Sequence record: PQ341120.1 | Direction: 5' to 3' (one strand) | DNA from: Escherichia phage EAWsc9 | DNA: 64,000 nucleotides | Shown: positions 6,467 through 42,995 of the stretch, in pieces | How the letters are laid out: every line of letters starts with the position of its first letter | Numbering within the stretch: position 1 is the stretch's first letter | Position numbers and translations under genes: made by a program | The notes under the pieces: generated by a model | Seen by the model: the letters and a program-made list of their open reading frames with translations, nothing else | Told to the model about the DNA's origin: nothing | Database searches by the model: none

Positions 6467-6784
6467 TTAATCTTCAATTAAGTCCTGGTCATACCCCAGG
6501 GATATCAGTTTTGTTTTAAAGGCAGGAATATTGGTCATTTTTTCATCATTGACAAAAATCACCGGGTAACGAATGTTAAGGGTAGGATATCCAGCACGCT
6601 TAGCCAGAGACACGATTAAAGGCCTGTCATAAGCGATTTCAGAGCCTTGTTTGTTAAGGACTGAATAGAATGTATAAGGAAGGTTTAAGGAGCCCAGAAG
6701 GCTCCTGACGTGCATACAACCAGGGCATCGACCGACTTCTTCGGGGATACCATAGATTTCAATCTTAGTCGAGTTTTGGCCCAC
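6467..6784 (-). CDS. nrdH: NrdH-like glutaredoxin
   Basis: 105 aa; CPGC redox motif near N-terminus; position between gene 55 and nrdG as in T4. Confidence 0.7.
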   Translation of the reverse strand: MGQNSTKIEIYGIPEEVGRCPGCMHVRSLLGSLNLPYTFYSVLNKQGSEIAYDRPLIVSLAKRAGYPTLNIRYPVIFVNDEKMTNIPAFKTKLISLGYDQDLIED

Positions 6785-7064
6785 AGGAAATCACTCCTTG
6801 GTAGTTCCAGGTTTTAATAACTTCTTCATCGCTGGTGGTTGCATACGGGACATAAACCTGAATAAGGAAACCTGTGTCATCGAAAGAGAAATAAACCGTC
6901 GGTTTGATTCCATGAATCTCAGATAGAGCATAGATATCTTTAAGGTCTTCTTCTTTATCAGCAAAGAATTTCGGGTCCAGGTCACAGTCGTGGAAGTACC
7001 ATTCATCACCGAACTTGTCCCACGCGGTCCAATTAGTAGCTACATATTCTTCAAAACGTTTCAT
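6765..7064 (-). CDS. hypothetical protein
   Basis: 99-aa minus ORF, acidic. Confidence 0.35.
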   Translation of the reverse strand: MKRFEEYVATNWTAWDKFGDEWYFHDCDLDPKFFADKEEDLKDIYALSEIHGIKPTVYFSFDDTGFLIQVYVPYATTSDEEVIKTWNYQGVISCGPKLD

Positions 7065-27105: not shown

Positions 27106-27366
27106 TTACGCTTTACCGCCGGAAACAATACCAAAGGTCTCAAAGTCCCATTCAATATCATCAACATCAACTTTCTTACCAGCAACCACGAATGCGATTT
27201 CGCGACGTTTTGCATAGGTGACAATTTCTTTACCATCACCACCAAAGAAAGAATAACCATTGCGCTTCATGGTGCCAAAGTCTTCAGCATCGCCAGCAAA
27301 GGCGCGAACTTTAAAAGCACCAGTAGGAGCTTTGGCTTCTGTGATAAATTCTTGATAAGTTTTCAT
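27106..27366 (-). CDS. internal-protein-like protein with N-terminal capsid-targeting sequence
   Basis: ATG at 27366 gives 86 aa starting MKTYQEFITEAK; 5' DNA end nearly identical to those of the 40042 and 40353 genes. Confidence 0.55.
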   Translation of the reverse strand: MKTYQEFITEAKAPTGAFKVRAFAGDAEDFGTMKRNGYSFFGGDGKEIVTYAKRREIAFVVAGKKVDVDDIEWDFETFGIVSGGKA

Positions 27367-36870: not shown

Positions 36871-37425
36871 TTAGTTCTTATAAAAGCGGAACGGATTTAT
36901 ATGAAAGGCGAGCATAGCCTTAGGGATTGGTCGGGACAGAAGACTCTTGAGCTTCCAGCCACAATAAACACGCAGATAAAAGGTGATTCCACCGACCTTA
37001 AGATAAGGAACAGAAGCAAAAACACCCCAGGCATTATCCGTCCACATCCAGAGCCAGCCATGGTGAGCTTTGTCTGGGGAGCCGGATTCAACATCAGGAT
37101 TACCTTTATAATGGAATTCTGAATTGCAATCACGACCAAGCTTGTGGTAAGCAAAATTGTATGCTTTATTTCGCCAGAGCCAGGCTACTCGTTGGAAGTA
37201 AACACCTAACGGCCATTTTCGGATTTTTGACCAACGTTCGACATGACCCCGGTCACCATCAATCGGATTGTCATATGTCATCATCCAATCAAATCCGAAC
37301 GGAAGTTTACCAGTCTTTTTATTATGGAATGGAACTACAAATGGAGCCAGGATAACGGCCAGAATCATGGAGATAAAATCCAGCGGAACTAACAGAATCC
37401 AACTCAAATATTTTAACAGTTTCAT
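36871..37425 (-). CDS. hypothetical membrane-anchored protein, Trp-rich
   Basis: ATG at 37425 (AAAGAG RBS) gives 184 aa; N-terminal TM helix LSWILLVPLDFISMILAVILAPFVV; flanked by terminators on both sides. Confidence 0.45.
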   Translation of the reverse strand: MKLLKYLSWILLVPLDFISMILAVILAPFVVPFHNKKTGKLPFGFDWMMTYDNPIDGDRGHVERWSKIRKWPLGVYFQRVAWLWRNKAYNFAYHKLGRDCNSEFHYKGNPDVESGSPDKAHHGWLWMWTDNAWGVFASVPYLKVGGITFYLRVYCGWKLKSLLSRPIPKAMLAFHINPFRFYKN

Positions 37426-37447
37426 ACGTTTCTCTTTAGTTGATTTA

Positions 37448-37477
37448 TAAAAAAGCCCCAACCTTTCGGAAGGGGCT
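37448..37477 (-). terminator. intrinsic terminator followed by late-promoter-like TATAAATC
   Basis: minus strand AGCCCC...GGGGCT stem then TTTTTTATAAATC (plus gatttata 37442-37449). Confidence 0.5.
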
Positions 37478-37514
37478 ATACCTTGTCGGGGTTCCACCTG
37501 CAAGGCAAGTGTTC

Positions 37515-37898
37515 TTATCCGCGAGCGAATGCCATTGCAGCGCGTTCGTTGGCACGGTCGGTGATGTTCAAGAATTTATCACGAGCAATTTCGATTGGGG
37601 CGCCGACCCAGTCAGCAGCACCATTACCCGGAGACTGTTTAGGGCGAACCATATAAGTTGAAACTTTGGAACCAGCTAGTTTGGCACCTGGCGCCGCGGC
37701 ATTTTTAACGTCTTTAGCTTTGATGCCAAACCCAGTTACGATACCCCAAGAAACGCCATTAACTGGTTTCTTGAACATAACACGGTCACCAATTGAAACA
37801 CCGGCTTTTTCTGGAGCCACTAAAGAAAATTTACCAGCTTCAGTCAGTACGGATTCGGTGATGGTATTGCGATTTAAAAATTCTGCATATGTAAGCAT
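37515..37898 (-). CDS. internal-protein-like protein with degenerate capsid-targeting sequence
   Basis: 127 aa starting MLTYAEFLNRNTITE; exact late-promoter box TATAAATA upstream. Confidence 0.5.
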   Translation of the reverse strand: MLTYAEFLNRNTITESVLTEAGKFSLVAPEKAGVSIGDRVMFKKPVNGVSWGIVTGFGIKAKDVKNAAAPGAKLAGSKVSTYMVRPKQSPGNGAADWVGAPIEIARDKFLNITDRANERAAMAFARG

Positions 37899-37920
37899 TT
37901 TGTTTTTCCATTATTAGGGT

Positions 37921-37928
37921 TGTTGTTA
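37921..37928 (-). promoter_or_regulatory. late promoter box TATAAATA
   Basis: plus tatttata = minus TATAAATA, about 25 nt upstream of ATG at 37898. Confidence 0.5.
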
Positions 37929-38131
37929 ATATTTATATTCCATAGTACCGGATGCACCATCCGCTCGGATTTCTCATACTACCGGACGCACCGTCCGCTC
38001 TGGAAAAACTCCGTTAAAAGGGTGCGCCGTTTCAGCTGTGGTAGTAAAGAACCAGAACACAGTAAAACTGTGGGAGGAACTATACTTCAGGGAACTTCAG
38101 TCCGACGACTTACCGGTAGCGACCCGGTTTC

Positions 38132-38371
38132 TCATTCAATTGTAATAGCTAATTTGACTTTAACAACCTTATAATTGGAATCAAGGTCATTGAATTCCAT
38201 AAAATTTGTTGCTAATCTGCGAGTCGGGAAACTTAGATATTTATTATGCTCAGGTGGAGCAGTTAATGCAAACCATGGGACTTGTTTATCATTTTCATCA
38301 AACTCATCAAAGCTATAAACCAGCTCGTTGTTGGTTATATCCATAACTGCATATGATTCACTAATAACCAT
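38132..38371 (-). CDS. hypothetical protein downstream of tRNA genes
   Basis: ATG at 38371 behind GAGGA gives 79 aa; the longer track ORF would overlap tRNA-Arg. Confidence 0.3.
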   Translation of the reverse strand: MVISESYAVMDITNNELVYSFDEFDENDKQVPWFALTAPPEHNKYLSFPTRRLATNFMEFNDLDSNYKVVKVKLAITIE

Positions 38372-38386
38372 AATATCCTCGGTAAT

Positions 38387-38463
38387 TGGTCGGGGTGGTG
38401 GGATTCTAACCCACAACCTACGGTTTAGAAGACCGTTGCTCTATACAATTGAGCTACACCCCG
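38387..38463 (-). tRNA. tRNA-Arg (anticodon UCU)
   Basis: hand-folded cloverleaf: acceptor CGGGGTG/CACCCCG, D stem GCTC/GAGC, anticodon stem ACGGT/ACCGT with loop CTTCTAA, T stem GTGGG/CCCAC, encoded CCA; T loop TTAGAAT and D loop without GG are atypical. Confidence 0.75.
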
Positions 38464-38539
38464 GGTGGCCCCATCCGGACTTGAACCGGAAACCTGCCAG
38501 TTATGAGCCGGATGCTCTAACCAATTGAGCTACAGGGCC
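38464..38539 (-). tRNA. tRNA with anticodon CAU (Ile-lysidine or Met type)
   Basis: hand-folded: acceptor GGCCCTG/TGGGGCC, D arm GCTC-AATTGGTTA-GAGC, anticodon loop CTCATAA, T arm TCCGG-TTCAAGT-CCGGA; one mismatch in anticodon stem; abuts tRNA-Arg. Confidence 0.7.
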
Positions 38540-38544
38540 TAAAA

Positions 38545-38814
38545 TTAAATTACAAATCCAGCGGGAGCATTATCATCTTTAGCCATGTGCTGAATTGTAT
38601 GATAAGTCATTTCTTCTGGTGCAACCAGATAAGCCGCTGCGTTAACCAACGGGATTAATTTGACTTTATTAAATGTTGGACAACCAATTGACATAAAGGT
38701 TTCGCCTGTTGGATGCTGAATTTCGCCAAATTGACACTCATACGAAATAGAGCAACGTTTGGTAGTGGTTGTCTTTGTTTTAGGGTCGTAAAAAGCTAAT
38801 TTTAATACTAACAT
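38545..38814 (-). CDS. hypothetical protein
   Basis: 89-aa minus ORF ending 6 nt before the tRNA pair. Confidence 0.35.
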   Translation of the reverse strand: MLVLKLAFYDPKTKTTTTKRCSISYECQFGEIQHPTGETFMSIGCPTFNKVKLIPLVNAAAYLVAPEEMTYHTIQHMAKDDNAPAGFVI

Positions 38815-38934
38815 AACACCTCAAGTAAAATTAAGTAAAGTAAGTTTGATTAATAGCACATGCTATTATGAAAGGTTCTTTGAGGGAAGAACCTTTGGTA
38901 ATAGAGGGTACTTATTAATAATAACGCGTTTTTA

Positions 38935-39417
38935 TTAAAGCATATCAAGCGCTTTAACAGATGGGATTTGGATTTCTTCTTCGATTATATATAGCTTAAC
39001 ATAAGAAATTACACGCATGAAATCGCCATCATATTCGCAAGCCATACCAAGGAGCTCAGTAAGGGCTTCATTCAAATAGTATGCTTCTTCATCATTATTC
39101 AGCAAGGCTTCTAAGTCTTGGATACCAAGAACTTTATCCAAAAATTCATAAGTCAACTGGCCAGATTTTACGCCAGATGCAATGTGGGCGATAACCAAGT
39201 GTTTAACTACATCCCATTCTGAATTACCACATTTATTGCAGTTATTGCAATGCGAACCATGGAAAAGTTCCAGGATATATTTGTACTGTTGGATTTCTTG
39301 TTCTTCTACACCAAATACCGTTTGGGTTTTATAGTTGTCACCATCATTTTCCCAGGTTTCAATTTCAATCACATAACCTTTAGGGATGGTCTGACCAAAT
39401 TTGATATTCATTCGCAT
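38935..39417 (-). CDS. hypothetical protein
   Basis: 160 aa; CNNCNKCG cluster. Confidence 0.4.
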   Translation of the reverse strand: MRMNIKFGQTIPKGYVIEIETWENDGDNYKTQTVFGVEEQEIQQYKYILELFHGSHCNNCNKCGNSEWDVVKHLVIAHIASGVKSGQLTYEFLDKVLGIQDLEALLNNDEEAYYLNEALTELLGMACEYDGDFMRVISYVKLYIIEEEIQIPSVKALDML

Positions 39418-39797
39418 GTTCCTTCATCAACAATAGTATGCGTATTGGCATTAACAATCTGCCACCAGTCAAAACGGTTGGAACCATAACAAGGCTTCTT
39501 CTCGTTTTCTTTAATGATATCACGCAGTTCATCTTCAGTCGCAGCCTTTGCGATTAAGTCAGCATAACCGCCACGAGGATAATAGCTATCACCAGCAAAG
39601 AGCAAAAAGTTTGTTTTGATATTCTTGAATTCTTCAAGAGTAATAACTGTTCCACCCGGTTGAACAATATCTACATAACTATATCCTAATTTCTGTGCTT
39701 CATTTACCGCTTCGAGCAGGGTGTCGTGTGCCCACCCAATTTGACAATCTGGTTTTTCAGATGGGTTTGCCTGATAATCCGCATACACTTTATACAT
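39408..39797 (-). CDS. hypothetical protein
   Basis: ATG at 39797 behind AAAGGTGAG gives 129 aa. Confidence 0.4.
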   Translation of the reverse strand: MYKVYADYQANPSEKPDCQIGWAHDTLLEAVNEAQKLGYSYVDIVQPGGTVITLEEFKNIKTNFLLFAGDSYYPRGGYADLIAKAATEDELRDIIKENEKKPCYGSNRFDWWQIVNANTHTIVDEGTCE

Positions 39798-39798
39798 T

Positions 39799-39984
39799 TT
39801 ACTCACCTTTGGAGATTTTATCCATAACGAAAGAGATTGAACCAATTAAAAATGCAACTACTAAAGAGATTATATTCTCAGAAGTTGAAAGCATATTCAA
39901 CATAAAGCCAGCAAACATGCTAAAACCAAAAGCGGTAACAGCAACAAGGGCAGTAACATTTCTAATTAATTCGCAACGTTTCAT
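39799..39984 (-). CDS. hypothetical small membrane protein
   Basis: 61 aa, two hydrophobic helices. Confidence 0.3.
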   Translation of the reverse strand: MKRCELIRNVTALVAVTAFGFSMFAGFMLNMLSTSENIISLVVAFLIGSISFVMDKISKGE

Positions 39985-40041
39985 TTTATTCTCCTCAGTA
40001 GTTGATGGGATAATTATACGCTATCCCATTCAAAAGTACAC

Positions 40042-40296
40042 TTATTTTTTAGGGATACGATAGTAACGCATCTCAACATCTTTCTGCTTGTGCCACTTTT
40101 TGATAAGGTCTTCAGAACCTTTAATGGTAACGATGTCATAGCGACCATCATGCGATACTTCAGCACTTAACTGCATGAAGTTGTCTAGTGAACGGCGCAA
40201 TTCCTCATTAGAAAAACTACCACGCGGGGAACCAACATAAGCAAACTCAACTTTTGCATCTGCGGCTTCGTTAATAAATTCTTGATAAGTTTTCAT
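40042..40296 (-). CDS. internal-protein-like protein with capsid-targeting sequence
   Basis: 84 aa starting MKTYQEFINEAADAK. Confidence 0.55.
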   Translation of the reverse strand: MKTYQEFINEAADAKVEFAYVGSPRGSFSNEELRRSLDNFMQLSAEVSHDGRYDIVTIKGSEDLIKKWHKQKDVEMRYYRIPKK

Positions 40297-40352
40297 GTTG
40301 TCTCCAGTAGTTGATGGGATAATTATACTGCAGTTATCCCATCGCGTATACT

Positions 40353-40595
40353 TTATTTTAAGTCTTCCAGACGTTTTTTCATCTTGGTGCCATTCTTAGC
40401 AATTTCGCCAGCATCAGAACAAAGAGCGAGGAGAGCTTTAACTTTACCCTGGTCGCCTTTAAAAGATGATGCATCTACAGAATCAGCAAGTTCTTTGATA
40501 CGTGCAAACAGGCGCTCTGCTTCAGCAAGGGCTTGGCCAAGTTTAACTTCCATACCATGGGAAGATTCTGTTATAAATGTTTGATAAGTTTTCAT
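40353..40595 (-). CDS. internal-protein-like protein with capsid-targeting sequence
   Basis: ATG at 40595 behind GGAGA gives 80 aa starting MKTYQTFITESS. Confidence 0.55.
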   Translation of the reverse strand: MKTYQTFITESSHGMEVKLGQALAEAERLFARIKELADSVDASSFKGDQGKVKALLALCSDAGEIAKNGTKMKKRLEDLK

Positions 40596-40611
40596 GTTGT
40601 CTCCAAGCCAT

Positions 40612-40632
40612 AAAAAGGGGATAATTATCCCC
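40612..40632 (-). terminator. intrinsic terminator between two internal-protein genes
   Basis: palindrome GGGGATAATTATCCCC followed by TTTTTAT on the minus strand. Confidence 0.45.
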
Positions 40633-40640
40633 ATTTGTTA

Positions 40641-40940
40641 TTACATCTTACTACCACGAATTACGCCATAAGCGGCGAAGTCGTCAGTGATATTTTTAGG
40701 GGTGTTCTTACCAGTTTCAATGAAGGCAATGCTTGATTTCTGACTAAAAGAGGTAATTTTGTTATAGTTAGAGTCAAGGAAGGTATAACCATTTTTACGC
40801 AACTGGTCAAAGTCTTCAGCGTCGCCTTTACCTTTGAAGTCAACCCATTTGTAGGTGTTTTTCTTCTGAAGGCCCAGAGGCCAGGTTTTTGCTTCTGCTA
40901 GGTAATTGTTTTCTACCAAAAATTCATGAAAAGTTTGCAT
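40641..40940 (-). CDS. internal-protein-like protein with capsid-targeting sequence
   Basis: 99 aa starting MQTFHEFLVENN; shares GDAEDF...NGY[ST]F block with ORF 27106..27366. Confidence 0.5.
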   Translation of the reverse strand: MQTFHEFLVENNYLAEAKTWPLGLQKKNTYKWVDFKGKGDAEDFDQLRKNGYTFLDSNYNKITSFSQKSSIAFIETGKNTPKNITDDFAAYGVIRGSKM

Positions 40941-40948
40941 TTGAAATC

Positions 40949-41221
40949 CTATTTTAAATAAATTGCATATTTTTTATAACCAGCCGTCTCATGACGGAGA
41001 CCCTTGTCATTGGCAAAACGCTCAATGTTATTAATTTGGTTCTGGTCAAGTTCTGAAATGTCAAACGCGAAAAAGTTGCGTTTGTTGCCAATTGTTATAT
41101 GGTCAGTTAAGTCAATGCTATACAGGTGATTGATATTGTCAATCATAGCTTTGACCGCTTTACTAATTTTTACTTCTTCATTCAGTTGTGACTCGTTGAA
41201 AAATTCATTGAAAGTTTTCAT
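40949..41221 (-). CDS. internal-protein-like protein with capsid-targeting sequence
   Basis: 90 aa starting MKTFNEFFNESQ. Confidence 0.5.
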   Translation of the reverse strand: MKTFNEFFNESQLNEEVKISKAVKAMIDNINHLYSIDLTDHITIGNKRNFFAFDISELDQNQINNIERFANDKGLRHETAGYKKYAIYLK

Positions 41222-41229
41222 AAGAAACC

Positions 41230-41562
41230 TTATTTATAAAGTTTTGCCAGTTCTTTACGTCCGCGAGCAGACATAATAAATTGTTCATCGCCAATTTTAA
41301 AATAAGCCATACCGCCGTCAACAGCGATACCAATTTCTTTAGTACCTTCTTTGCCTTTCCACTTGCCACCAGATTTCAGGACAGCTTCAACTGCAGCTTT
41401 GGAATATTTGGACGTTTGAAAACGTTCATTACCAATCTGAAAGAAAACACCATCTGCATTTTTGGTTAAACCAAATTTCAGAGAGCCTTCACTATCATCA
41501 ATTGATTTGGTCTCATTGATGGCGGATTCGGCTAAAAACTCGTTGTAAGTTTTGATGTTCAT
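41230..41562 (-). CDS. internal-protein-like protein with capsid-targeting sequence
   Basis: 110 aa starting MNIKTYNEFLAESA. Confidence 0.5.
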   Translation of the reverse strand: MNIKTYNEFLAESAINETKSIDDSEGSLKFGLTKNADGVFFQIGNERFQTSKYSKAAVEAVLKSGGKWKGKEGTKEIGIAVDGGMAYFKIGDEQFIMSARGRKELAKLYK

Positions 41563-41597
41563 ATTAACTCCGTTTGTTCATTCGTTGGTGTAGGAAC

Positions 41598-41626
41598 ATA
41601 ATACTGTACCTACACTTATTTGTACA

Positions 41627-41627
<1 letters not shown>
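41598..41627 (-). promoter_or_regulatory. early sigma70-type promoter (-35 GTGTACA, 17 bp, -10 TATTAT) heading the internal-protein array
   Basis: plus ataata 41598-41603 and tgtacac 41621-41627. Confidence 0.45.
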
Positions 41628-42317
<690 letters not shown>

Positions 42318-42318
<1 letters not shown>

Positions 42319-42995
42319 TATATTACCTTATTAATTTTATCAAAAAGTTCTTCGAGTGTGCCATTGTTTTTAATAACAATGTCACTAGCTAGTGGTGGAA
42401 GTCCAGCTTCCGTAATGTGTGTATCGGTAGAATGATTTGCTTCATCGCGTTCTACAAAGATTATTGTAGCACCCATCGCCCGAAGCGAATCAAGTTCGTT
42501 CTTTTGACGAACATCTGGGACAACGTAATATTTATATCCAGAATAGAGGTTGTCAAGATAATCGCACGCAAAAGTTTTAATCCAAAACATGCTGTCGAAC
42601 TCTGTACAAACGATGTCAGTTCCAAGGGTCTGCATGAAACGTCTAACTGTCCAGGGCTCAACATTATTTAGTGTGTGAAATTCAATGATTTTACGAACCA
42701 TATCTGGATTCGGAAGGTCAAGATTGTATTGTTGTTTCAACCATTCAAGAGCATCAACCAGAAGAATATAAGCTTCGGTGTTGTTCATTATCAAGGTTTT
42801 TTCACGGTCATAACCTTGTCCATCAAAATTTTCCAGGGTCAAATTGTGTGGCAGGTCTTGACGAATCCACGCTTTATAAAGCGCTTCTTTAATCGGACCT
42901 GCAAGCTGCCACTTTGTTCCGTTTTGACTAATAACATAATCAGCAGTCGTATCTTTACCACTGCGTTTTTTGCCCACAATCGCAATTAATTTCAT
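42318..42995 (-). CDS. 1: gp1 deoxynucleoside monophosphate kinase
   Basis: 225 aa; P-loop GKKRSGKDT; position between 57A and gene 3. Confidence 0.8.

Follow-up and report, generated by a model that had tools for sequence, protein, structure and literature searches.

The window that we analysed, a 64,000-nucleotide stretch of Escherichia phage EAWsc9 (PQ341120.1), comes from a Gaprivervirus (VR7-like) T4-type coliphage, and the region from 40042 to 41562 is very probably its polymorphic ipI ("internal protein") locus, composed of five independent cassettes that each encode one small internal protein. The five adjacent open reading frames (ORFs) lie on the minus strand and each opens with a T4-type capsid-targeting sequence (CTS; Table 1). 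We regard it as nearly certain that their products are CTS-tagged internal proteins. A sequence-only reading of this DNA had already described five consecutive minus-strand CTS genes of 80-110 aa, and we confirmed both their coordinates and their N-termini. The biology is already established and that earlier interpretation is a rediscovery: papers citing Repoila 1994 credit it with the polymorphic IP locus, the CTS was described by Mullaney and Black 1996, and cassette shuffling is covered by the papers on promoter/hairpin elements (PeSLs; Arbiol et al. 2010, PMC2839356; Comeau et al. 2014, PMC4122927).

Table 1. Features of the ipI slot and its flanks, and the two candidate genes outside it. 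A slash within a leader marks the predicted cleavage position.
Coordinates	Strand	Feature	Details
41627..42082	-	57B, left flank of slot; Acb1 anti-CBASS phosphodiesterase	Pfam PF23474 Acb1, E 1e-59; syntenic with T4 57B
41563..41626	-	Early-promoter-like element between 57B and first cassette	TGTACA, 17-nt spacer, TATTAT, hairpin over -10 box; promoter scan match 41626-41598; fold -13.1 kcal/mol
41230..41562	-	Putative internal-protein gene, body family C, 110 aa	Leader MNIKTYNEFLAE/S; second [LI]xE site INE-17
40949..41221	-	Putative internal-protein gene, body family B (ip9), 90 aa	Leader MKTFNEFFNE/S; phrog_7673 'internal head protein', E 2e-56
40641..40940	-	Putative internal-protein gene, body family E, 99 aa	Leader MQTFHEFLVE/N; phrog_2667 'internal head protein', E 6e-21
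40596..40640	-	Hairpin between cassettes E and F	GGGGATAATTATCCCC then TTTTTA; terminator-like site 40632-40617; fold -10.5 kcal/mol
40353..40595	-	Putative internal-protein gene, body family F (ip5), 80 aa	Leader MKTYQTFITE/S; phrog_3499 'internal head protein', E 2e-41; ip5 in ECML-359
40297..40352	-	PeSL-like element	-35-like TATACG, 17-nt spacer, TATAAT, RBS GGAG; fold -13.4 kcal/mol, z -2.5
40042..40296	-	Putative internal-protein gene, body family A, 84 aa	Leader MKTYQEFINE/A; phrog_8111 'internal virion protein', E 2e-15
39985..40041	-	PeSL-like element, right-hand slot boundary	Between last cassette and trna.4; sequence, repeat, fold
39799..39984	-	trna.4 homologue, right flank of slot	phrog_1692, E 7e-34; trna.4-like in relatives' annotation
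37515..37898	-	Candidate seventh internal-protein gene, IpI-like long leader	MLTYAEFLNRNTITE/SVLTE/A; last match of loose N-terminal pattern
27106..27366	-	Putative internal-protein gene, second ip locus, body family E	Just downstream of denV; leader MKTYQEFITE/A; phrog_2667, E 9e-22

The array fills the ipI slot, which runs from 57B to trna.4; by synteny, the same slot in T4 holds a single cassette, ipI, in place of the five found here. Both the array and 27106-27366 occupy ip-locus positions (57B-trna.4 or the e/denV region), whereas 37515-37898 does not. Four of the five array products belong to PHROG families named 'internal head protein' or 'internal virion protein', and ip5, ip6 and ip9 are names already in use at the locus in GenBank relatives, among which ECML-359 is 98.8% identical to the window over the locus. 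The gene directly upstream of the array encodes the anti-CBASS enzyme Acb1. None of the seven proteins scored above threshold against Pfam or NCBIfam, PDB sequence searches with the five array products and that of 37515-37898 gave nothing below E 0.025, and an Rfam scan of 37400-42200 matched two tRNAs and nothing else.

A strict CTS pattern matched six ORFs in the window, namely the five array genes and the one starting at 27366, and none in 200 shuffles. With a looser pattern and a minimum ORF length of 50 aa, exactly seven ORFs matched, compared with 0.03 per shuffle; every one is on the minus strand, and the match is always at the ORF start. The five array genes and 27106-27366 also match M-K-T-[YF]-x-E-F at the N-terminus. 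Position 4 is aromatic and position 7 is Phe in all seven genes (41230-41562 being counted from K-T-Y), and published work on the CTS assigns targeting to residues 4 and 7 and processing to residues 8 and 10. At positions 8-10, I/L-x-E is found in 27106-27366 and in four of the five array genes; 40949-41221 has F-N-E there, with Phe instead of Ile or Leu at position 8, and a second site, L-N-E, at 13-15. We infer that [LI]-x-E is the cleavage-site motif of gp21 in these leaders and predict cleavage accordingly.

That the motif is the T4 capsid-targeting sequence, as had been proposed, is borne out by the T4 leaders, the literature and the synteny of the slot. T4 IpII and IpIII both start with MKTYQEFIAE/A, and T4 IpI starts with MKTFKEFTSTTTPVSTITE/A, a 19-residue variant ending in ITE. 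According to published work, ten N-terminal residues of IPIII are enough for packaging, even of foreign proteins, and gp21 removes the propeptide. The AF2 model shows the leader as a short helix of low confidence; a linker (pLDDT <50) containing the predicted cleavage site separates it from the folded body. The gp21 protease and gp22 scaffold of ECML-359, whose genes lie beyond the 64-kb window, are 88% and 73% identical, respectively, to those of T4.

The individual array genes differ in detail. The leader of 41230-41562 is a CTS with two extra residues in front (MNI-KTY), and the gene is 'hypothetical' in the annotation of relatives and of 'unknown function' in PHROG. Gene 40949-41221 starts 8 nt past the stop of the upstream gene and is annotated as ip9 in ECML-359 and VR7. 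Two genes, 40641-40940 and 40042-40296, are without annotation in ECML-359. The former deviates from the leader consensus at Gln2 and Phe4 and has a second cleavage-type site, LAE-16. In a family E profile search of 1.84 billion representatives, the true relatives were small CTS-bearing proteins only; SprB-like and IPT/TIG-like long repeat proteins, with 5-11 stretches each, were judged repeat-summation artefacts and rejected. The latter is, on sequence comparison, a divergent Ip6 allele (47% identical to VR7 Ip6); alleles at least 90% identical to it occur in 14 phage records, and the wider family in 245. For 40353-40595, the mechanical ORF extends to 40634, the extension lies within the hairpin, and an RBS (ggagacaac) precedes the ATG at 40595.

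Two more genes of this type had been proposed outside the array. One of them, 27106-27366, stands and matches the strict pattern; 37515-37898 matches the loose pattern only and is a weaker candidate because it has no E at position 10. The array bodies had also been described as unrelated to one another apart from one pair; a single related pair does exist, but it consists of 40641-40940 and 27106-27366, which are paralogues (36% identity over 61 aa, E 3e-14, all-against-all BLASTP), and none is detectable inside the array. In ~30 T4-like loci, one to four CTS genes flank denV, and none was found beside DenV in 48 jumbo-phage and environmental loci. Gene 37515-37898 is outside both canonical loci, past trna.4 by ~1.9 kb and on the downstream side of an rnaD homologue, and carries cleavage-type sites at 13-15 (I-T-E) and 18-20 (L-T-E), comparable to ITE-19 of T4 IpI. 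It is an orphan, with 15 Gaprivervirus records at ≥99% identity and nothing else among 5.8 billion proteins, and it matched nothing in PHROG, Pfam or the PDB. A TATAAATA box is located 32 nt upstream of it, at 37930-37937; such late-promoter boxes show no enrichment across the window (7 observed, 5.7 expected), and their counts are therefore no evidence alone. Another box, at 41231-41238, was rejected as the promoter of 40949-41221 since it is too near that gene's ATG.

Some of the genes (41230-41562, 40949-41221, 40353-40595 and 37515-37898) might no longer function as internal-protein genes, and instead encode cytoplasmic early proteins or be decaying cassettes in which the leader is a mere recombination footprint. 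The deviations in the leaders would fit such decay, namely the MNI prefix of 41230-41562 and Phe8 of 40949-41221 (position 8 being a processing determinant), as would the terminator-like hairpin upstream of 40595 and, for 37515-37898, the lack of Glu10, of relatives and of a place in the two canonical loci. However, the ORFs are all intact and the array DNA is 94-99% identical in relatives, the K-T-Y-x-E/D-F-x-x-E core is kept in eleven family C homologues, and three of the suspect genes have an alternative [LI]xE 5-6 residues downstream, as in T4 IpI. Likewise, the leader of 37515-37898 resembles the long T4 IpI leader that ends in ITE, and by chance only 0.03 matches to its pattern are expected. 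We consider the loss of function in these genes unlikely.

If the genes are functional internal-protein genes, they would be transcribed from sigma-70-type early promoter/hairpin elements, probably with added read-through from the 57A/57B unit late in infection. The first ~10 residues (consensus MKTYQEF[IL]xE) would bind each protein to the scaffolding core while the prohead assembles, after which the gp21 prohead protease would cut behind the Glu of [LI]-x-E and leave a mature body of 70-100 residues free in the head. The bodies would then be ejected into the cell with the DNA, and each would most likely neutralise one specific host defence protein. Gene structure, motif, synteny, family membership, cassette breakpoints and a conserved gp21/gp22 pair in a near-identical phage are what we observed; packaging, cleavage, injection and an anti-defence role are what we infer for these proteins.

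By analogy with the characterised members, it is probable that these internal proteins act against host defences; that their targets are GmrSD-family enzymes is conceivable, but on balance doubtful. Each of T4 Ip1, Ip2 and Ip3 blocks its own GmrSD type IV restriction enzyme, and it was proposed in the same study that the accessory proteins of both Ip loci all target GmrSD variants (Silas 2025, PMC12373910). The earlier reading of the products as candidate injected anti-defence effectors agrees with this. In published work, Ip4-Ip10 of T4-like phages gave no reproducible inhibition of eight active GmrSD systems. This set includes the Ip5, Ip6 and Ip9 families, to which three array genes are assigned by the annotation of relatives, so that for these families a limited test has already gone against the GmrSD hypothesis. 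All-against-all BLASTP and clustering detected no significant relatedness of the bodies to T4 Ip1, Ip2 or Ip3, and neither the five array products nor that of 37515-37898 gave a sequence match to the solved IPI* structure.

The product of 41230-41562 is predicted to adopt a Whirly/PUR-like fold, which is a new detail. The model is of medium confidence (pLDDT 76.7), and sequence identity to Whirly, PUR and MRP1-MRP2 proteins is 8-13%. Proteins of this fold usually bind nucleic acid (single-stranded), although SsgB has the fold and is not a nucleic-acid binder.

Historically, internal proteins were viewed as having a structural or physico-chemical role, and the products of the array could be packaged to condense or neutralise DNA in the head, or to aid ejection, without being specific inhibitors of defences. 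A basic pI (8.8-10.0) is predicted for five of the seven mature bodies, ~1000 internal-protein molecules are embedded in the DNA of T4 heads (published work), and both the fold predicted for family C and the published lack of anti-GmrSD activity of Ip4-10 would be compatible with such a role. Yet generic charge leaves unexplained why clustering yields ~27 unrelated body families over both ip loci and why cassettes turn over among phages that are 94-99% identical. Furthermore, the other two bodies are near neutral (pI 6.5 and 6.8), and all three characterised T4 internal proteins are highly specific enzyme inhibitors. We regard a structural role as quite improbable and favour specific inhibition of host defences.

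Three sites in the slot have the full PeSL composition of putative promoter, stem-loop, Shine-Dalgarno sequence and start codon (41563-41626, 40297-40352 and 39985-40041), and one, 40596-40640, has the hairpin only. The arrangement at 41563-41626 is the same as that upstream of T4 ipI. At 40297-40352, a 10-bp stem (GATGGGATAA/TTATCCCATC) spans the spacer and the -10 box, and the element fits the T4/PST PeSL consensus TTTACW-N17-TAYWAT (PMC4122927); a 31-nt direct repeat of it, 90% identical, is found upstream of trna.4. The hairpin-only site resembles a terminator, or else a 'half' PeSL left by degradation. Gene 40353-40595 has this terminator-like hairpin upstream and no recognisable promoter of its own. 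This phage (at 42529) and T4 share a late-promoter box within gene 1, upstream of 57A.

Among 31 related loci, the slot contains one to five real ORFs drawn from at least 12 unrelated body families, and only two ORFs (in L010 and L021) lack a CTS start. Cassette order is C-B-E-F-A in the window, C-B-E-I-A in VR7, C-B-F-A in L004 and C-B-E-A in L005. Content thus varies between close relatives, and the fact that L004 naturally lacks cassette E, and L005 cassette F, indicates, indirectly, that ip genes are non-essential. Compared with L004, homology stops at 40911, the last base of the CTS of E, and returns at 40595, the ATG of F. Compared with VR7, it stops at 40564, just past the CTS of F, returns at 40359 (F stop/PeSL), continues to 40250 (47 nt into A) and returns once more at 40055 (A stop). 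In L007, the body of 40353-40595 is fused to an IpI-type long leader, MKTFKEFAAKTTITE/SSHGMEV. The breakpoints coincide with PeSL-like elements, and because they fall at the 3' end of the CTS segment and at the stop codon/promoter-hairpin, they support the earlier proposal that cassettes are exchanged within the targeting sequence. We propose that each cassette carries portable homology on both sides, the 30 nt that encode the CTS at its 5' end and a PeSL at its 3' end, by which bodies could therefore be inserted, deleted and swapped between related phages.

The 5' ends had also been thought nearly identical at the DNA level, which is true of three of the seven genes and not of the others: ATGAAAACTTATCAAG is exact at 40296 and 27366, and has one mismatch at 40595, three at 40940 and more than three at 41221 and 41562, while the 40-nt 5' ends within the array are 88% identical in one pair and 63-71% in the rest. 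A set of 90 distinct 30-nt CTS sequences encodes 45 peptides; ACT, ACA, ACC and ACG are all used for Thr3, and Tyr4, Ile/Leu8 and Glu10 likewise vary synonymously. It is barely credible that the shared 5' sequence is selected as nucleic acid (for example as a translation-initiation enhancer or recombination site) with no peptide signal, even though a 16-mer including the ATG is common, exactly or nearly so, to three of the genes and recombination breakpoints map to the shared segment, since most pairs of 5' ends are so dissimilar, a 10-residue peptide packages foreign proteins (published work), and the abundant synonymous change led us to reject selection at the DNA/RNA level only.

With its CTS, its [LI]xE motif, its position between 57B and trna.4 and a second locus beside denV, the array resembles T4 IpI-IpIII and the T-even ipI locus (Repoila et al. 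1994; Mullaney and Black 1996; Bair et al. 2007; Silas et al. 2025, PMC12373910), and as in T-even ip loci, the genes are small and vary in number and kind between close relatives. It differs from T4 in that the bodies are unrelated to those of IpI, IpII and IpIII and in that the second-locus gene is downstream of denV, the T4 genes ipII and ipIII being located between e and denV. The array also resembles PeSL shuffling (PMC2839356, PMC4122927), in which cassettes are bounded by promoter/hairpin elements to which the indels of relatives map; indeed, these papers give the IP locus as their earliest example. In contrast to the PeSL systems, exchange here has its 5' boundary within the gene, at the segment encoding the CTS, and no PeSL is present at two of the junctions (41222-41229 and 40941-40948). 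The stem, placed just upstream of the promoter in the papers, here overlaps the spacer and -10 box. Finally, like anti-CRISPR and other anti-defence arrays, the locus comprises small, unrelated, fast-turnover genes at a fixed site beside an anti-defence gene (here Acb1), but membership is marked by a delivery peptide tag and not by a shared regulator such as Aca.

There is a modest chance that 41230-41562 and 37515-37898 represent internal-protein families that nobody has recognised, the former an injected duplicated Whirly/PUR-like protein and the latter a clade-restricted IpI-type orphan. If so, some internal proteins would act on nucleic acid instead of inhibiting GmrSD enzymes, and the family C protein might protect the DNA or DNA ends on entry, or decoy nucleic-acid-sensing defences; as for the orphan, it would mean that the CTS can tag genes elsewhere than at the two canonical loci.

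Although no new principle emerges, the window offers a compact, well-delimited set of six to seven candidate injected proteins beside Acb1, in a type of phage that is used in therapy collections. Such effectors can be sought by a simple sequence rule, the presence of a CTS, and the mapped cassette boundaries are places where foreign payloads could be swapped in. Only three of the roughly 27 body families in our survey have a known target. In T4-like phages, the loci for internal proteins are recognised as a hot spot of counter-defence, and since the tagged proteins would arrive with the DNA, they could act before any phage gene is expressed.

Five consecutive minus-strand ORFs with N-termini of the capsid-targeting sequence (CTS) type are present at 40042-41562, as the sequence-only reading had claimed. 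This observation is confirmed, and the interpretation of the products as internal proteins (Ip) is supported. The array locus is 98.8% identical to that of Escherichia phage ECML-359 and 93.8% identical to that of vB_EcoM_VR7 (both Straboviridae, Tevenvirinae, Gaprivervirus). It is flanked by 57B and trna.4, with 57A, gene 1, gene 3, and gene 2 further upstream, and places five genes in a slot where T4 has the single gene ipI. In many GenBank relatives, 57B is still named "RNA ligase" or "hypothetical". Four of the five array products belong to PHROG families termed "internal head protein" or "internal virion protein", and the PHROG of the family C product is labelled unknown function. Relatives carry gene F as ip5 and gene B as ip9, and gene A is related to ip6 (47% identity with VR7 Ip6). 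In the GenBank annotation of ECML-359 (locus L001; OL631482.1), the counterparts of genes A and E and of the ORF at 37515-37898 lack a CDS. The mechanical ORF of gene F reaches 40634, the extra part falling within an intergenic hairpin; the ribosome-binding site ggagacaac precedes the ATG at 40595, and likewise that at 40296.

Features of the internal-protein array and its surroundings (a slash marks a predicted gp21 cut; homology breaks are listed in the direction of transcription)
Feature	Coordinates	Strand	Length	N-terminus or detail
Gene C	41230-41562	minus	110 aa	MNIKTYNEFLAES
Gene B	40949-41221	minus	90 aa	MKTFNEFFNES
Gene E	40641-40940	minus	99 aa	MQTFHEFLVEN
Gene F	40353-40595	minus	80 aa	MKTYQTFITES
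Gene A	40042-40296	minus	84 aa	MKTYQEFINEA
denV-locus gene	27106-27366	minus		family E
Seventh candidate	37515-37898	minus		MLTYAEFLNRNTITE/SVLTE/A
57B	41627-42082	minus		upstream flank
trna.4	39799-39984			downstream flank
Box in gene 1	42529-42536			TATAAATA
Cys-rich ORF	38935-39417	minus	160 aa	HCNNCNKCGN
tRNA region	38387-38539	minus		Arg-TCT, Met-CAT
rnaD homologue	38020-38135	minus		non-coding
Tandem repeats	37941-38000			two of 26 nt
Break, L004	40911 to 40595			stops at last base of E's 30-nt CTS; restarts at ATG of F
First break, VR7	40564 to 40359			stops just beyond F's CTS; restarts at F's stop/PeSL
Second break, VR7	40250 to 40055			stops 47 nt into A; restarts at A's stop

The identification of the leader as a T4-type CTS agrees with the T4 sequences themselves, as IpII and IpIII begin MKTYQEFIAE/A and IpI begins MKTFKEFTSTTTPVSTITE/A. 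For head incorporation, the 10 N-terminal residues of IPIII suffice; residues 4 and 7 matter in targeting and residues 8 and 10 in processing, and the propeptide is taken off by the prohead protease, T4-type enzymes of this kind cutting after Glu. The propeptide of T4 IpI comprises 19 residues, given a precursor of 95 aa and a mature form of 76 aa. The packaging machinery genes lie outside the window; gp21 and gp22 of ECML-359 are 88% and 73% identical to those of T4. A strict leader pattern matched six ORFs in the 64-kb window, namely the five array genes and the denV-locus gene, and none in 200 shuffles. A looser pattern, in which Glu10 was not required, matched exactly seven ORFs (≥50 aa), each on the minus strand and each at the start of the ORF, where shuffled windows averaged 0.03; the seventh was 37515-37898.

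Three array leaders deviate from the consensus. Gene B has Phe at position 8 and gene E has Gln2/Phe4. Gene C carries a two-residue prefix (MNI-KTY, 41554-41562); the codon at the ancestral start position is ATC, and the ATG used lies two codons upstream with its own GGAG before it. Since all 11 of 11 homologues begin M-KTY, this suggests that the ancestral ATG mutated to ATC and the upstream ATG took over. In three genes, another [LI]xE site follows five to six residues further down (INE-17, LNE-15, LAE-16), reminiscent of T4 IpI.

The 5' ends had been described as nearly identical at the DNA level, which holds for three of the seven genes and not for the remainder, because the 16-mer ATGAAAACTTATCAAG is matched perfectly at 40296 and 27366 and with a single mismatch at 40595, but with three mismatches at 40940 and with more than three in the two remaining array genes. 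Similarly, the bodies (the mature parts after the leader) had been called unrelated apart from one pair. A single related pair does exist, but it is not within the array, where no two bodies show detectable relatedness; it joins gene E to the denV-locus gene (36% identity over 61 aa, E 3e-14; both in phrog_2667).

With 57B as anchor, 28 further loci were fetched from viral contigs. Between 57B and trna.4 there are one to five real ORFs, nearly all beginning with a CTS or close variant (e.g., MKSY, MQTL, MMTF), and at least 12 unrelated body families are represented. DenV as anchor gave ~30 T4-like loci in which denV is flanked by one to four CTS genes; the negative control, 48 DenV loci from jumbo phages and environmental sequences, had none. 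Both loci pooled comprise ~27 true body families, and in this clustering none of T4 IpI, IpII, and IpIII joined a family of the window. The 90 distinct 30-nt CTS sequences encode 45 peptides, with Thr3 using all four codons and further synonymous variation at Tyr4, Ile/Leu8, and Glu10; the leader is under selection as a peptide.

Same-genus phages differ by whole cassettes. Along transcription the window reads C-B-E-F-A, VR7 and the related locus L006 C-B-E-I-A, L004 C-B-F-A, and L005 C-B-E-A. From the breakpoints against L004 and VR7 (see table), it follows that only the body is exchanged, with boundaries at the CTS-coding segment (5') and the stop codon/promoter-early stem-loop (PeSL; 3'). 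Breakpoints in the CTS-coding segment support the proposal of cassette exchange by recombination within the targeting sequence. In the T4-like contig L007 (IMGVR_UViG_3300010279_000005, 6529-6786), the body of gene F (SSHGMEVKLG...) follows an IpI-type long leader, MKTFKEFAAKTTITE, a natural leader swap on one body and the converse of body exchange. The recombination idea is not new, being credited to 1994 work in PMC4122927. The array is a textbook feature, namely the polymorphic internal-protein locus that was described for T-even-type phages in 1994; the functional definition of the tag, the shuffling mechanism, and the anti-restriction roles of the T4 members are already known, and part of the array is annotated in near-identical GenBank genomes.

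Upstream of C lies an early-promoter-like element, TGTACA-17-TATTAT, with its -10 box inside a hairpin, the same arrangement as upstream of T4 ipI. Genes B and E each start 8 nt past the preceding stop codon with no promoter in the gap. Downstream of E, a terminator-like hairpin, GGGGATAATTATCCCC, is followed by TTTTTA, and no promoter was recognisable at it. The F/A and A/trna.4 junctions carry near-identical elements (TATACG or TGTACT, a 16-17-nt spacer, TATAAT), each with a 9-10-bp GGGATA/TATCCC stem and then ATCAACTACTG(A)G-GAG, which fit the PeSL description and the T4/PST consensus TTTACW-N17-TAYWAT (PMC4122927). Gene 1 contains a TATAAATA box, upstream of 57A, that T4 also has at the equivalent position; it could offer a route for late array expression via read-through.

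Of the two further CTS genes proposed, the denV-locus gene stands, as a strict-pattern match. The corresponding vs.8-denV interval of ECML-359 has no annotated CDS and is ~370 bp longer; VR-group relatives have two to three CTS genes there versus one in the window. The other, 37515-37898, matches the loose pattern only and is plausible but unproven as a seventh internal protein. Its leader is much like that of T4 IpI, without Glu10 but with ITE-15 and LTE-20. The gene is an orphan: 15 Gaprivervirus records contain it at ≥99% identity, no other occurrence was found in the phage collection or among 5.8 billion proteins, and it matched nothing in PHROG, Pfam, or PDB. It is located ~1.9 kb past trna.4 and shortly after the rnaD homologue, with a TATAAATA box 32 nt upstream of its ATG. 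The rnaD homologue corresponds to the small stable "species 2" RNA of T4, is identical to it over roughly the initial 40 nt and in the 3'-terminal CACAGC.GAAACGGCGCACC, and matched no Rfam family. Between it and 37515-37898 are the two tandem repeats (88% identical, 34 nt apart), each a short GC-rich hairpin, GGAYG-GTG-CRTCC, then GGTA(G/C)TATG; these may be promoter/hairpin elements. The tRNA region has only two tRNA genes (T4 has eight), and the Cys-rich ORF lies between them and trna.3.

The body of gene C contains a significant internal duplication, and its AF2 model (overall pLDDT 76.7, body 82-89) has a bbbba x2 topology. The best Foldseek match was PURA (E 4e-3), a medium-confidence resemblance to Whirly-type folds, which usually bind single-stranded nucleic acid. 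The modelled leader forms a short helix of low confidence, and the linker after it, where cleavage is predicted, has pLDDT <50, as would fit a detachable tag. For family E, the model was weak and gave no match.

That T4 IPI is an anti-restriction protein is established in the literature, IPI* being an inhibitor of GmrSD, a type IV restriction enzyme, from E. coli CT596. Two other GmrSD variants are blocked by Ip2 and Ip3, which do not cross-protect, and ip4-ip10 gave no reproducible inhibition of further active GmrSD systems; the same authors propose that all accessory proteins encoded at the two Ip loci are directed against GmrSD variants (Silas et al., 2025, PMC12373910). Because of this published Ip/GmrSD work, the suggested anti-defence role is the best-supported inference for the array products. 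The gene directly upstream, 57B, matches Pfam Acb1, an anti-CBASS phosphodiesterase (E 1e-59); the ip array therefore directly adjoins a known anti-defence gene, which fits the anti-defence reading.
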